From NCBI GenBank assembly GCA_026014875.1, contig JAOZHO010000050.1:36090-100089 (forward strand): 64,000 nucleotides of DNA. The letters are read 5' to 3'. A model generated the notes under the pieces. That model was not told the DNA's origin, did not search any database, and was given only the letters and a program-made list of their open reading frames with translations. This DNA is from Candidatus Bathyarchaeota archaeon. Lineage in GTDB: Archaea; Thermoproteota; Bathyarchaeia; TCS64. The position numbers and the translations under genes were made by a program. Each line of letters starts with the position of its first letter. Positions within the stretch are counted from its first letter, which is position 1. Shown piece by piece: positions 45,963-50,778 of this stretch.

Positions 45963-47398
45963 GGGAGCAATCTATAGCCTCCCAGACCACATTTCTCAAC
46001 TCCTATAAACCCGCGGTAGAGGCCCTCAAAGACCACATCCAACGAGACAACCCCCTCCGCATCATCACCCACAACGACGCCGACGGCGTCGCCGCAGGAG
46101 GAATACTAAGCCAACTCGCCAGACGCCTCGACGCCAGATTCAAAACCACCTGCGAGAAACGCGTCGACGACAAGATGGTCCAATCCATCGCAGCCGAGAA
46201 CCCCCCGCTGGTCCTATTCTCCGACATGGGAGCCGGCTACCTAGACATGTTCGAGGAGCACCTCAAAGAGTCCCAGATCATCGTCCTCGACCACCACCTC
46301 CCCGTGAAGTCCGAAGCCCCCAACATCATCCACATCAACCCCCTCCTCCACGGCCTCGACGGAGCCCGGGGAATAAGCGGGGCCGGAGTCTCCTACTTCC
46401 TCGCCAAATCCGTCGACGAACAGAACGCCGACCTGAGCCCCCTCGGCATCGTCGGAGCCCTAGGCGACCGCCAGGACAAGGGAGAGAAGAAGACCCTCAT
46501 CGGCATGAACACCATCATCGAGGCCGACGCCAAACGCCTAGGCCTCCTCGAGACCCACCACGACCTCATATTCTACGGCTACGAGACGAGGCCCCTGGCC
46601 CGGGCCTGCGCCTACACCACGAGCCCATTCATACCCGGCCTCAGCGGACGCGAGGACAAGTGCCTCGCCCTCCTCAAGGAGGCCGGCATAGAACTCAAGA
46701 ACGAGGGGAAATGGAGGGCCCTCAGGGACCTCACCGAGGAGGAGAAACGCACACTATTCTCCGCCCTCACCAAACACATGATCTACGAGGGCTGCGACGC
46801 AGAGGCCGTCCACGACCTCGTGGGCACCATATACACCCTCAAAGGCGAGGAGCCCTGGACCCCCATCAGGGACGGCCGCGAATACGCCTCCCTCCTCAAC
46901 GCCTGCGCCCGCATGGGCCGCCCCAGCATAGGCCTCAGCATCAGCATGGGGGACCGCAACGAGGCCCTCAAAGAGGCCGCAGACACCCTCAACGGATACC
47001 GCCGCAAGATCGGCGAGTACCTCGACTGGGTCCGCAAGGCCGACCGCATCGAAGAGAGGTCGCACATCTACACCCTGGTCGTCAACGACGACATCGACGA
47101 GCGCATCATCGGGGTAGTCTCCTCCATCCTCATCTCCACAGGCATCCTCAAGAAATACAAACCCATCATCGCCTCCGCCAAAGCCGACGGAGAACTCATA
47201 AAGATCTCCGCCCGAGCCACCGAAGACATGGCCAAACAAGGCCTAGACCTCGGAGACGTCATGATGAAAGCCGCCGAACCCCACGAAGGACGAGGCGGAG
47301 GCCATGACATCGCCGCCGGGGCATTCCTCCCCGAGGCGAACCAGGAGGAATTCCTCCAAAGGGTGAACGCACTTGTCGGAGAACAACTCAAAACCTGA
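45959..47398 (+). CDS. DHH/RecJ-Cdc45 family nuclease (GAN-like); start non-canonical or uncertain
   Basis: ITHNDADG, FSDMG, LDHH, GALGDRQD, GGGHDIAAG; rps15-DHH-pcc1-rps3Ae order is the known context of Thermococcus GAN. Confidence 0.9.
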   Translation: MREQSIASQTTFLNSYKPAVEALKDHIQRDNPLRIITHNDADGVAAGGILSQLARRLDARFKTTCEKRVDDKMVQSIAAENPPLVLFSDMGAGYLDMFEEHLKESQIIVLDHHLPVKSEAPNIIHINPLLHGLDGARGISGAGVSYFLAKSVDEQNADLSPLGIVGALGDRQDKGEKKTLIGMNTIIEADAKRLGLLETHHDLIFYGYETRPLARACAYTTSPFIPGLSGREDKCLALLKEAGIELKNEGKWRALRDLTEEEKRTLFSALTKHMIYEGCDAEAVHDLVGTIYTLKGEEPWTPIRDGREYASLLNACARMGRPSIGLSISMGDRNEALKEAADTLNGYRRKIGEYLDWVRKADRIEERSHIYTLVVNDDIDERIIGVVSSILISTGILKKYKPIIASAKADGELIKISARATEDMAKQGLDLGDVMMKAAEPHEGRGGGHDIAAGAFLPEANQEEFLQRVNALVGEQLKT

Positions 47399-47636
47399 GA
47401 CCCGGGTCCAGATAACCCTCCCCTACAAGGACCCCGAGACCGCAGCATCCATCCGAGACGCCACGACACCCGACAACCAGGAGGCCCCCCCAGGCGTCAC
47501 AATCCACACCACAACCGAAGACGCCACGCTCCACATCACAGTCACAGCCACCGGAATAGCAACCCTCATCGCCACCGTCGACGACCTCCTCTTCTGCATC
47601 CAAGCCGCAGAGAAAGCACTCCAAGAAATAGAATGA
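47373..47636 (+). CDS. pcc1: KEOPS subunit Pcc1
   Basis: PDN motif, TLIATVDDLLFCIQAAE C-terminal helix, conserved position. Confidence 0.88.
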   Translation: MSENNSKPETRVQITLPYKDPETAASIRDATTPDNQEAPPGVTIHTTTEDATLHITVTATGIATLIATVDDLLFCIQAAEKALQEIE

Positions 47637-47668
47637 CAACGCCCCCCAAAGAGTTCATTTTTAGAAGG

Positions 47669-47894
47669 TGTAGCACGGAACTCCGGCCTTTCTCCAAGCG
47701 TCCCTGGCGGCGGCACTCGTCGATCAACCACGGCCGCTAGCCCGTGTACCTCGGTTCTCTCGGCCGTCAGCACCTGTGCCTTCGCACATATCCGGATGGT
47801 CCCAGGCTAACCCGAGCCTCGCCCTCCGCTTCCCGCCCCCTTGCGAGGGTTTTCCGCTTCGCGCTTTTCCGTCTATGCTTTTATCCGTGCTACA
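47669..47894 (-). ncRNA. Candidate ~226-nt structured non-coding RNA of unknown class
   Basis: 11-bp perfect end-closing helix TGTAGCACGGA/TCCGTGCTACA; minus-strand hairpins CCCUC-GCAA-GGGGG, UGUGC-GAAG-GCACA, AGGCU/AGCCU and ACGGCCG/CGGCCGU; TATA-like TTATGAAA 19-26 nt upstream. Confidence 0.55.
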
Positions 47895-48192
47895 GAACTA
47901 TACCCGACATGATTTCATAATATCCTTACGTTTCTCCAAAACCCCAAAACACATACCTGAACAACGTAATAATGACCAATTATTGCCCCATGTCTGTTAA
48001 GAATGTCCCCTAATGATGAGACCAAATAATATTGAGGTGTGAGGCTCAATACAACCCCCCTTATCGAGGGATCTTTCCATGTATGATTTCAGGGATTAAA
48101 TTATGAATAAACCTACCTGAGCCCCCTCGGAGAAACATATAAATTACCGGGCGCTCCTTTCAGGACATTGACCCAAGGAGAGAATTTGAAAC

Positions 48193-48783
48193 TTGTCGAG
48201 GGCAGTCAGGGACAAGTGGAGGAGGAAGGAATGGTACGACATCTACCTCCCCCGCTACTTCGGAGAGACCAAGGTGGGCGAGACCCCCTCCGGAGACCCC
48301 TCGAAGATCATGGGCAGGGTGTACAACACGACCCTCGCCGCGATCACCGGGGACTTTTCCCAGGAGTACCTAAAGATGTACTTCCAGATCATCGGGATCG
48401 AGGAGAACACGGCCCAGACCGTCTTCAAGGGTCACGAGTACCTCAGGGACTACCTCCGAAGCTTAGTTAGGCGGAGGAGCACCAAGGTCGACGGGTTCTT
48501 CAGGATCGACACCATCGACGGATACAAACTCAAAATAGTCGTGACCGCGCTCACGAACAGCCGGATCCAGACCTCCAAGGAGAAGGCGATCCGGGACATC
48601 ATGCGGGACGTGGTGGAGGAGAAGGCCAAAACCCTGGATTTCGGCCAGATAGTCCACGAGATGGTGCTAGGGAAGCTCGCCTCCGACGTCTACAACGAGG
48701 CCCGGAAGATAACCAGTCTCAGGCACGTCGGGGTCCGAAAGTCAGAGCTCCTCGGGATGCCCGCCTTAGTCCCCCGAGTTTAA
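48193..48783 (+). CDS. rps3ae: 30S ribosomal protein S3Ae
   Basis: RDKWRRKEWY, FKGHEYLRDYLRSLVRRRSTKVD, RKSELL. Confidence 0.96.
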   Translation: MSRAVRDKWRRKEWYDIYLPRYFGETKVGETPSGDPSKIMGRVYNTTLAAITGDFSQEYLKMYFQIIGIEENTAQTVFKGHEYLRDYLRSLVRRRSTKVDGFFRIDTIDGYKLKIVVTALTNSRIQTSKEKAIRDIMRDVVEEKAKTLDFGQIVHEMVLGKLASDVYNEARKITSLRHVGVRKSELLGMPALVPRV

Positions 48784-48817
48784 ATTCTAAGAGCTGCTTC
48801 TATCCATAGGCTGATCC

Positions 48818-49432
48818 ATGGATCCAAGACGCGATGTAGCCCGGGAGGCCGCCCGCCTCCTCTACACGGAAGCCTCAGAGGAGTACTTACACGCTAAGGA
48901 GCGGGCAGCCCGGAGCCTGGGAGTCCAAACAATGCCAAGCAACCACGAGGTGGCCGTCGAACTCGACCTCCTGACAGACGAGATCGAGGGAAAAACCCGA
49001 GCTGAACTCATCCTCAAGATGAGGGATCTCGCCCTCGGGCTGATGAGGATCCTCTCGGATGTTAGACCTGTTCTGAGGGGAAGCGTCTGGAGGGGGACGG
49101 CCCGCAAGGGGAGCGACATCGACATCGACGTCTACTCGAACGAGCCCATTGAAGTCAAGAACCTCTTGGAAGACTCGGGGTACCGCGTGACCGGATTCCA
49201 AGAGAAAGTAGCCGTGAGCGGGAGGATGATGTCGAGATCGATTCATATTCAGGTCCGTCTGGAAGATGAGATCGAGGGGGAGGTCGTCGTGAGGCCCGTC
49301 GAGGAGCATGGTCTCGAGGTGCGGTGCGAAGTATATGGCGACGCGAAAAAGGGGCTACGCCTCCCCGAGCTGGAAAAGCTTATGAACACGGACCCCCTCC
49401 GAAAGTTCGTCCCCAGAAGGCGTTATCGATGA
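48818..49432 (+). CDS. Nucleotidyltransferase-domain protein with N-terminal helical domain
   Basis: LRGSVWRG...SDIDIDVY pol-beta motif. Confidence 0.8.
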   Translation: MDPRRDVAREAARLLYTEASEEYLHAKERAARSLGVQTMPSNHEVAVELDLLTDEIEGKTRAELILKMRDLALGLMRILSDVRPVLRGSVWRGTARKGSDIDIDVYSNEPIEVKNLLEDSGYRVTGFQEKVAVSGRMMSRSIHIQVRLEDEIEGEVVVRPVEEHGLEVRCEVYGDAKKGLRLPELEKLMNTDPLRKFVPRRRYR

Positions 49433-50778
49433 GACTATTTGGCTCTTCAGGAATAAGGGGAATTGCCAACGTAGATATCACTCCATTATTGGCCCAGAAA
49501 GTTGGCGCCGCCATCGCATCGATGTTCGAGGGCGGCGCCGTCCTCGTCGGGAGAGACCCAAGGCTATCCGGGGAGATGATCGAGCTAGCCTTATCCTCGG
49601 GTCTCGTATCCTGTGGATTCGTCGTGGGAACCCTGGGGGTCGTACCCACTCCCGTGGTGGCATGGCTCACGAGGGAGATGCAGGCTGAGGCCGGAGTAGC
49701 CATCAGCGCCAGCCATAACCCACCTCAATACAACGGGCTCAAGATATTCGACTCCACCGGGATGGCCTACACGATGGAGCAACAGGAAAGCCTCGAGGAG
49801 CGCATCCACAAGGGGGAGAATGCGGCTTCTGATTGGAACCGCGCGGGGCATGTTGAGGCGATGGACCTGAAGAGGCTCTACATCGATGCGATCTCCGAGC
49901 TTGTCGAGGCCCCCCTAGAGCAGCGGCTCGTATGCGACCTGTTCAACGGGGCCACCATATCCATCGCAAAAGATCTATTCGAAGAACTCGGTAGCCAGAC
50001 AATCCTGATCAACGCCCAGCCCGACGGGCATTTCCCAGCTGGCAACCCCGAGCCGAACAAGGAATCCCTCCAAAGGCTCGGAAAAATGGTTAAAGCCTCG
50101 GGGGCTGAGATCGGCTTCGGATTCGACGGTGACGGGGACAGGATGATGCCCGTCGACGAGAATGGAGAAACCCCGAGCCCCGACAGGGTCATGGCTGCGT
50201 ACGCTGGATACGTCGTGAGGGCCAACGGCGGAGGGACAGTGGTTACCCACGTGGGGGCCTCCATGTCCGTCGAGGAGGCGGTTGAGGCAGCCGGGGGCAG
50301 CGTCGTCAGAACGAAAGTAGGGGACGTCCATATCACAGAAGCCATGCTGGAAACGGGGGCAATCTTCGGAGGCGAACCTGTGGGGGCGTGGATCCACCCC
50401 GATATCCATCTTTGCCCAGACGGCCTTCTATCGGCAGTGAGGCTGATGCAGGCATTGGACTCCGACGGGAAGACTCTCTCCCAGTTCGTTTCAAGCATCC
50501 CCGAGTACCCCACCCTCAGGGCGAAGGTCTCGTGCCCCAACTCGGAGAAGGATGCAGCGATGGGCTCGATATCCGATATTGGAGAGGAGTTCGGGGAGGT
50601 CACGGACATCTCCACAGTGGACGGAGTCCGCCTTCAACTCGAGGACGGCTGGGTGCTGATTAGACCCTCTGGTACCGAGCCCATCATAAGGATCACCGTC
50701 GAGGCCCATGACGCGGAGCGAGCGAGAGGACTCTTAGAGACCAGCAAGTACTTTGTTCAATCAGTTTTAGGTGGATGA
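49429..50778 (+). CDS. glmM: Phosphoglucosamine mutase / phosphohexomutase
   Basis: LFGSSGIRG, ISASHNPPQYNG, FDGDGDR, IRPSGTEP; ATG 49429 overlaps the upstream stop. Confidence 0.9.
   Translation: MRLFGSSGIRGIANVDITPLLAQKVGAAIASMFEGGAVLVGRDPRLSGEMIELALSSGLVSCGFVVGTLGVVPTPVVAWLTREMQAEAGVAISASHNPPQYNGLKIFDSTGMAYTMEQQESLEERIHKGENAASDWNRAGHVEAMDLKRLYIDAISELVEAPLEQRLVCDLFNGATISIAKDLFEELGSQTILINAQPDGHFPAGNPEPNKESLQRLGKMVKASGAEIGFGFDGDGDRMMPVDENGETPSPDRVMAAYAGYVVRANGGGTVVTHVGASMSVEEAVEAAGGSVVRTKVGDVHITEAMLETGAIFGGEPVGAWIHPDIHLCPDGLLSAVRLMQALDSDGKTLSQFVSSIPEYPTLRAKVSCPNSEKDAAMGSISDIGEEFGEVTDISTVDGVRLQLEDGWVLIRPSGTEPIIRITVEAHDAERARGLLETSKYFVQSVLGG

Follow-up and report, generated by a model that had tools for sequence, protein, structure and literature searches.

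A structured RNA gene of an uncatalogued family between pcc1 and rps3Ae in one family of Bathyarchaeia

A stretch of 64,000 nucleotides (nt) from Candidatus Bathyarchaeota archaeon (assembly GCA_026014875.1, contig JAOZHO010000050.1, positions 36,090 to 100,089; hereafter the window) contained, between the genes pcc1 and rps3Ae, a minus-strand interval that is almost certainly a genuine gene for an RNA belonging to a new family. An earlier reading of this DNA, made from the sequence alone, had proposed a separately transcribed minus-strand RNA antisense to the pcc1/rps3Ae gene block, and promoter conservation, asymmetric G-U usage, covariation and single-copy synteny all bore this out. Comparison among related genomes established the promoter conservation, strand, secondary structure, synteny, duplication and lineage restriction of the gene. 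The RNA family is uncatalogued and is restricted to one archaeal family. Genomes (G), contigs (C), loci (L), genera (g) and families (f) are cited below by our own labels where they have to be told apart. The gene and its promoter elements were located as follows (window positions, strand in brackets):

47663..47893 (minus): whole RNA gene, 231 nt, with the 5' G at 47893 and the 3' pyrimidine tail ACCUUCU at 47669-47663
47913..47920 (minus): TATA box TTATGAAA, extended form ATATTATGAAAT at 47912-47923, centred approximately 24 nt before the start of P1, the terminal helix
47924..47934 (minus): upstream element resembling a B recognition element (BRE), GAAACGTAAGG, or GTAACAGAAGG in other genera; common to the paralogous RNA gene

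The gene is closed by a perfect 11-bp inverted repeat (arms 47669-47679, TGTAGCACGGA, and 47884-47894, TCCGTGCTACA; 100% complementary, 204 nt apart), exactly where the sequence-only reading had placed it. That reading was also right about a GC-rich interior (GC 0.63 vs. 0.39 in the neighbouring spacer) and about the lack of a target-site duplication, as no direct repeats were found flanking the inverted repeat. By our own estimate, the chance expectation for an 11-bp inverted repeat within 900 bp is approximately 0.1, which is weak evidence by itself, and the single-sequence fold energy was only modestly more favourable than that of shuffled sequences (z = -2.0 on either strand). The case for the gene therefore rests on comparative data and not on fold energy. 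R1, a covariance model covering the entire element, matched C12:83752-83982, equivalent to window positions 47663-47893, with 207 bits. No reading frame was open family-wide, and the lengths of homologues differed by non-multiples of three.

The TATA box TTATGAAA occupied positions -27 to -20 relative to the first G of the terminal helix, which agreed with the TATA-like box predicted earlier on this strand, and relatives carried a TATA box at the same distance. All class A genes (class B, found at a second locus, is described below) had a TATA box approximately 24 nt upstream of P1 (ATATAAA, AAATAAA, or ATATTATGAAA in this genus), and ATATAGA was a further variant at the same spacing among homologues. 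The upstream AACAGAA element and the TATA box at constant distance were kept in both the window RNA and its paralogue. Because this is the usual spacing of an archaeal TATA box, transcription would start at G47893 or at an adjacent base. At the other end of the gene, a conserved pyrimidine tract, ACRCCUUCU, directly followed P1, and conservation stopped beyond it; this tract is taken as the putative 3' end, though it would be a weak terminator.

The alignments of homologues supported a fold of approximately 12 helices, in which two multi-helix domains (P2-P4 and P5-P9) meet P1 at a three-way junction:

47884..47893 (minus): 5' strand of P1, GUAGCACGGA, paired with 47670-47679; sequence nearly invariant in the family
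47670..47679 (minus): 3' strand of P1, UCCGUGCUAC, partner of 47884-47893
47786..47878 (minus): 5' domain, P2a/P2b around P3 and P4, from the comparative structure
47856-64 / 47821-29 (minus): P3, whose tip P3b (47846-49 / 47836-39) is capped by the GNRA loop GCAA
47811-16 / 47801-06 (minus): P4, loop UUAG, invariant sequence CGGGUUAGCC
47680..47785 (minus): 3' domain, P5 around P6 and P9, from the comparative structure with P5 refined by hand
47778-85 / 47680-87 (minus): P5, hand-refined from the G008 and G011 sequences
47769-73 / 47713-17 (minus): P6, around P7 and P8, from the comparative structure
47762-67 / 47730-35 (minus): P7, apical CCG-AGGUACA-CGG
47726-28 / 47719-21 (minus): P8, from the comparative structure
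47703-07 / 47693-98 (minus): P9, invariant G-GACG-C tetraloop

Covariation, which had been suggested earlier as a check on the RNA, was found in two alignments. The first (A1) was a plain MAFFT alignment of 12 genomes with an RNAalifold consensus, in which P5 was then extended by hand. Before this extension, RNAalifold gave 64 pairs, including 27 with compensatory double changes. The 67 pairs of A1 were standard in 91.3% of cells, compared with 31-42% when the 3' partner was slid by 1-3 columns, and 30 pairs showed compensatory changes on both sides. The second alignment (A4) contained an independent set of 36 distinct metagenome sequences; its 64 pairs were standard in 92% of cells (31-42% after the same slide), with both-side changes in 38 of the 64, values that lean towards the structure because A4 was aligned by the model. 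In both alignments, the observed values were reached by 0 of 500 shuffles. Cells with G-U or U-G numbered 89, vs. 17 with A-C or C-A, and this excess identifies the window minus strand as the sense strand. The same polarity had been suggested earlier on the basis of the hairpin CCCUC-GCAA-GGGGG, whose G-U pair forms on the minus strand; the hairpin was indeed present, and it showed compensatory changes in relatives (helix 6 of A1, helix 5 of A4). A mutual-information scan for pseudoknots was dominated by clade signal and revealed no convincing tertiary pair.

Conservation was distributed unevenly over this fold. The conservation hot spots were P1 (GUAGC.CGGA / UCCG.GCUAC), the tip of P4, P9 (GGGACGC), the A-rich junction after P1 (J1/2 = UAAAA), and two G's in P5/P6. 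The outermost pairs of P1 and the P4 tip kept their sequence family-wide, including in the diverged versions at the second locus, and the tip of the P9 hairpin was invariant wherever that hairpin was present. The internal helices covaried freely.

BLASTN detected the gene once in its own genome and once each in 14 of 61 relatives, and a regular-expression search revealed no further paralogues with P1 ends in the own genome. Model R1 recovered the RNA in 19 of the 71 genomes of the same taxonomic family (10 of 12 genera), and 38 further members, with scores of 133-215 bits, came from metagenome contigs searched with a strict pattern. The other 6 of the 44 metagenome pattern matches were rejected as unrelated palindromes resembling repetitive extragenic palindromic (REP) elements, with GTAGCGCGGA...CCGCGCTAC ends that were imposed by the search pattern. 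Loci L222, L223, L225 and L230 were repeated palindromes of this REP-like kind (GTAGCGCGGACC...GGTCCGCGCTAC), which share the first 10 bases of P1 only through the pattern. A looser pattern scan of genome contigs returned only chance matches in GC-rich bacteria. Wherever the contig was long enough, the gene order was constant and the RNA lay on the strand opposite to both of its neighbours:

47373..47636 (plus): pcc1 (KEOPS subunit), a context marker (Pfam Pcc1, E = 4.6e-8), convergent with the RNA gene and ending 27 nt from its 3' end
48193..48783 (plus): rps3Ae (Pfam Ribosomal_S3Ae, E = 8e-67), divergent from the RNA gene, with its own promoter GAAACATATAAATT at approximately 48133-48146

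A RecJ-like DHH gene and a small nucleotidyltransferase gene were the outer neighbours beyond pcc1 and rps3Ae, and no minus-strand gene followed the window copy of the RNA. The position was identical in more than 50 genomes and contigs, the carriers comprising 18 relatives and 38 metagenome contigs. This constant single-copy synteny excludes a dispersed repeat, which settles the choice between syntenic conservation and multi-copy dispersal that the sequence-only reading had posed: all carriers had the gene at the same pcc1-rps3Ae site.

A class-wide search of 301 genomes (108 genera) confined the RNA family to one taxonomic family, plus a weak relative in G038 of family f3. This relative (L171, G038:C48:3439-3562) is an RNA of approximately 150 nt that was recognized by a shorter model, R2 (E = 1e-6); R2 had been built with a partly wrong RNAalifold structure, which lowered its sensitivity. 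The G038 RNA, which is preceded by a TATA box of its own, has a terminal helix of 14 bp and contains two or three G-GACG-C hairpins; it lies between a MazG-like gene and an XPD helicase gene and may be a distant relative. The genes are archaeal, and the RNA-bearing metagenome contigs included sets labelled SMTZ, which is consistent with a sediment archaeon; viral contigs lacked the RNA.

A second copy was present in G008, G006 and G011, and G013, in which the pcc1-rps3Ae spacer was empty, had a related copy at the same second locus. These class B RNAs (225-264 nt) have P1, P4, P6-P9 and the promoter in common with class A, and have a larger 5' domain. They were flanked by a PAC2 gene on the opposite strand and by a 115-aa Myb-like gene on the same strand, 30-40 nt downstream, which gave weak matches to Myb/GcrA and zinc-ribbon domains. 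The PAC2/Myb locus, with the promoter CTGCAACAGAACCATATTATAA, occurred in nearly all genomes of the family. Its RNA was well kept in g5, g3, g8 and g10, was approximately 195 nt long with the P4 hairpin retained in g9 (GUAGCGGGG...CCCCGCUAC), was variable or degenerate in g4, and was unrecognisable to the model in g1, g2, g6, g7 and g11, all of which have the pcc1-rps3Ae copy. The own genome carries, outside the window, the same type of promoter (CTGCAACAGAATCATCATAAAC) upstream of a Myb/zinc-ribbon gene (C24:74543-74740; L210), where a structured RNA of approximately 125 nt (GCGGGAG...CUCCCGCC) is not recognized by the family models; this is probably either a diverged older paralogue or a different RNA. 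At loci L191-L212, a motif RGGNUAGWGGAKAC was kept 10-22 nt before the Myb-like ATG, whatever the RNA upstream; it may act close to the promoter, in ribosome binding or as the site of a regulator.

In g4, g9, g10 and families f2 and f4, only 80-130 nt separate pcc1 from the rps3Ae promoter, and no RNA is present. The segment inserted into this spacer in the carriers includes the promoter, which lies outside the inverted repeat. Taken together, the empty spacers of close relatives and the Myb-linked paralogue indicate that the window copy arose by duplication. In the simplest reading, the Myb-linked gene would be the older copy, a promoter-bearing duplicate would have entered the pcc1-rps3Ae spacer in one sub-lineage, and one of the two copies would thereafter have tended to diverge beyond recognition. 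Duplication followed by such divergence of one copy argues for a function in trans that is independent of the neighbouring genes. Furthermore, the older-locus RNA is unrecognisable in most lineages with the window copy, and the window copy has no downstream gene. Thus, the window RNA probably acts in trans.

The invariance of P1, P4 and P9 among freely covarying helices suggests protein binding, and the RNA is possibly a protein-bound scaffold or a protein decoy. An archaeal BRE/TATA promoter would start the minus-strand transcript at the first base of P1, and the pyrimidine tract ACCUUCU right after P1 would end it. The product, a stable non-coding RNA of approximately 231 nt, would fold into the P2-P4 and P5-P9 domains on the P1 junction. 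Proteins would then read three invariant features, namely P1 (GUAGCG.../...CGCUAC), P4 (CGGG-UUAG-CCUG) and P9 (G-GACG-C), with the covarying helices serving as scaffold only; this pattern, combined with the A-rich junction and the GNRA tetraloop, suggests a compact particle. It is a more speculative proposal that the RNA is the RNA subunit of a hitherto undescribed, lineage-specific archaeal ribonucleoprotein (RNP), or an archaeal functional analogue of the protein-sequestering RNAs of the 6S or Y type. As a whole, the best explanation, a duplicated and trans-acting RNA gene of a new family whose product is most likely an RNP RNA or a protein-sequestering RNA, is put forward tentatively, with a likelihood that falls a little short of even.

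Several observations weigh against this explanation. The flanking genes differ between the two paralogues, and no partner protein was pinpointed. The range of a single family among the 108 genera of the class is not that of a core housekeeping RNA and counts against any essential role. In G002, of the same genus, approximately 40 nt across the P7 tip, P8 and P9 are gone and are replaced by a short hairpin, CGCGCGCAAGCGCG, with the 5' domain, P1 and P5 intact (L041 / L004, G002:C23:143056-143244); this loss likewise speaks against an essential role, and either the RNA may not need its 3' domain or the gene may be degenerating in that species. The invariant helices could possibly reflect alternative pairing or processing signals instead of protein contacts. 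Finally, no oligo-U run follows the RNA, and there is hence no strong terminator, so that transcription may read through into the antisense strand of pcc1 or, at the older locus, into the Myb gene.

One alternative is a base-pairing regulator that would act either as a trans-acting small RNA with seeds in its loops or, by such read-through, as a cis-antisense RNA against the 3' end of pcc1. The convergent orientation and closeness of pcc1, the missing oligo-U terminator, and the 7-nt P7 loop AGGUACA, which is kept in most genera, would all suit such a regulator. However, the paralogue keeps the same core in another context, and pcc1 therefore cannot be the shared target; the sequence beyond the tail is not conserved; the conserved bases lie nearly all in structure, with no long single-stranded seed; and the P7 loop differs in class B, g5 and g8. 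A regulator of this type is therefore unlikely.

It is improbable that the RNA is a trans-acting ribozyme or a free-standing aptamer, in which the compact tertiary fold itself would be the functional unit. The multi-junction architecture of approximately 12 helices in 231 nt is in line with this idea, as are the conserved GNRA tetraloop on P3b, the A-rich junction J1/2, and the scattering of invariant nucleotides among covarying helices. On the other hand, active sites and ligand pockets are usually found in junctions or internal loops, and the invariant positions here lie mostly in helices and hairpin tips. No self-cleaving ribozyme or riboswitch model matched, the 3' domain is missing from G002, and the family is neither multi-copy nor linked to repeats or metabolic genes.

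The older locus raises the further possibility of a cis leader by origin, that is, a structured 5' untranslated region (a riboswitch or a protein-binding leader) of the Myb/zinc-ribbon gene, with the window copy as an orphan duplicate. In nearly every genome of the family, the older-locus RNA precedes the Myb-like ATG by 30-40 nt and shares its strand, without a clear terminator in between. Nevertheless, the window copy is the better-conserved paralogue in spite of having no downstream gene on its strand, and an A/T-rich block resembling a TATA box occurs in many genomes at -30 to -22 relative to the Myb ATG, which we read as suggesting a separate leaderless promoter. In addition, P1 shows no covariation with the motif that precedes the ATG, and in family f4 the Myb gene is present but the RNA is not. 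This origin is accordingly quite improbable. At the window locus itself, a riboswitch or other cis leader was rejected because no minus-strand gene follows and pcc1 is convergent.

The sequence-only reading had offered a remnant of a miniature inverted-repeat transposable element (MITE) as its second option; a MITE or an insertion-sequence remnant, whose terminal inverted repeats would close a GC-rich interior by chance, fits the perfect 11-bp repeat and the insertion of the element relative to related genomes, but is rejected as very improbable given one genomic copy without flanking direct repeats or a target-site duplication, a position that does not vary among more than 50 genomes and contigs, an inserted segment whose promoter lies beyond the repeat, RNA-specific covariation with a G-U strand bias, and absence from viral contigs.

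The idea that the gene is a highly divergent signal recognition particle (SRP) RNA or RNase P RNA missed by the standard models has hardly any credibility, although its size and paired 5' and 3' ends are loosely similar and the Archaea_SRP model (RF01857) had no match in the own genome. The genuine RNase P RNA was found elsewhere (C34:74385-74674, 206 bits). The flanks of the SRP locus in a genome of the same genus matched the ends of own contigs C33 (bases 1-117) and C48 (bases 1-58), and the own SRP gene therefore sits in an assembly gap. Moreover, eight relatives (G002, G005, G008, G009, G010, G017, G021 and G029) had both a canonical SRP RNA and the window RNA. The earlier statement that RNase P and SRP signatures are missing was correct: the region had no match to the RNase P models (RF00373 / type T), no conserved region I (CR-I, GAGGAAAGUCC) or V (CR-V), no SRP-clan match at E<=10 and, by inspection, no GGAA/AGCA helix-8 motif. 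The sequence GGAGAAAGGCC near the 3' end of the RNA was not conserved in homologues. Three more genomes of the genus also lacked an Rfam SRP match.

Rfam 15 gave no match in the whole window at the gathering threshold and none on the locus at E<=10, in agreement with the earlier inference of an unknown class; for six related loci, including the paralogue loci, nothing relevant was found at E<=1. A match to MIR7533 in L044 was rejected as spurious, as it arose from a long inverted repeat produced by rps3Ae duplication. In L044 (G015:C53, ~1896-2498), the intact rps3Ae gene adjoins a partial copy of its own 5' end in inverted orientation. An H/ACA guide small RNA (sRNA) was rejected because the triplet after P1 was ACC, ACU, GCC, AAC or GAC and not ANA family-wide, because P1 opens into a three-way junction and not into a pocket, and because no H/ACA model matched. 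Similarly, the alignment contained no conserved C (RUGAUGA) or D (CUGA) boxes of a C/D box sRNA, and Rfam gave no match to this class. No reverse transcriptase, transposase or nuclease gene was adjacent, which excluded a retron or other reverse transcriptase-associated RNA; the neighbours of the paralogue encoded PAC2, Myb/zinc-ribbon and CBS proteins. ARAGORN predicted no tRNA or transfer-messenger RNA genes in 46000-50000. A mimic of the 3' end of 16S rRNA, in which P1 and ACCUUCU would resemble helix 45 and the anti-Shine-Dalgarno sequence, was rejected because the tail differs in the paralogues and because the assembly contains no 16S 3' end for comparison. A genome-wide search for a GACG-hairpin regulon showed no enrichment over other loops.

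The window RNA is a new RNA family, since no catalogued family matches it and no archaeal class fits it feature by feature. No description of it was found in the literature. To our knowledge, archaea have very few complex-folded RNAs beyond rRNA, tRNA, RNase P RNA, SRP RNA and guide sRNAs, and we know of no such RNA previously reported from this uncultured sediment lineage. One of the closest resemblances is to raiA, OLE, ROOL and GOLLD, the bacterial orphan "ornate" structured non-coding RNAs that were found by comparative genomics. These are likewise intergenic, GC-rich relative to the flanking spacer, equipped with their own promoter and lineage-restricted, and they share many covarying helices, few invariant nucleotides and no function that is obvious from sequence. 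In contrast, their Rfam models do not match the window RNA, which is archaeal, is approximately 230 nt long, ends in a terminal helix of invariant sequence and is present as one or two copies.

Other known RNAs share some of these features. 6S RNA (ssrS) is also a stable RNA of approximately 200 nt that evolves rapidly in sequence, ends in a terminal helix and has two paralogues in some genomes; much as ssrS stays with ygfA, the older copy is persistently linked to an unrelated gene downstream and perhaps co-transcribed with it. However, 6S RNA has a rod shape, and its central bubble imitates an open promoter, whereas the window RNA is branched with two multi-helix domains, and no 6S model matched. 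Y RNAs of the Ro type resemble the window RNA in their conserved 5'/3' terminal helix, variable interior, short pyrimidine 3' tail and one to few paralogues. Unlike the window RNA, they are approximately 100 nt long and in prokaryotes are encoded beside a Ro (TROVE) gene, and the Ro-binding helix sequence is absent here. No TROVE gene flanked either paralogue, and this result concerns the flanks, as no genome-wide TROVE search was made. Archaeal SRP RNA is comparable in being archaeal, branched, several hundred nucleotides long and paired at its ends, but the window RNA lacks the helix-8 and helix-6 motifs and a match to that model, and it coexists with canonical SRP RNA in the same genomes.

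More than 55 sequences, approximately 12 helices with covariation, a promoter, a fixed locus and a paralogue are enough for an Rfam-grade family. A protein-bound RNA would be a sign of an undescribed cellular machine; if it is catalytic or binds a ligand, it represents a new ribozyme or aptamer class. Should the RNP or sequestering explanation be true, the history of two paralogues, in which one copy is unrecognisable when the other is present, would offer a natural experiment on the essential parts of the RNA. Given a range of one family and a function that is only proposed, the immediate impact is moderate and not broad.

Two minor observations concern the surroundings of the gene and the own genome. 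On the metagenome contig Ga0315280_10000727 (L235), the RNA gene is separated from rps3Ae by approximately 6 kb of additional DNA, representing an insertion into the AT-rich spacer. In the own genome, ARAGORN called an 89-nt "tRNA-Pyl" on the minus strand at C13:103368-103456, which is a candidate call.
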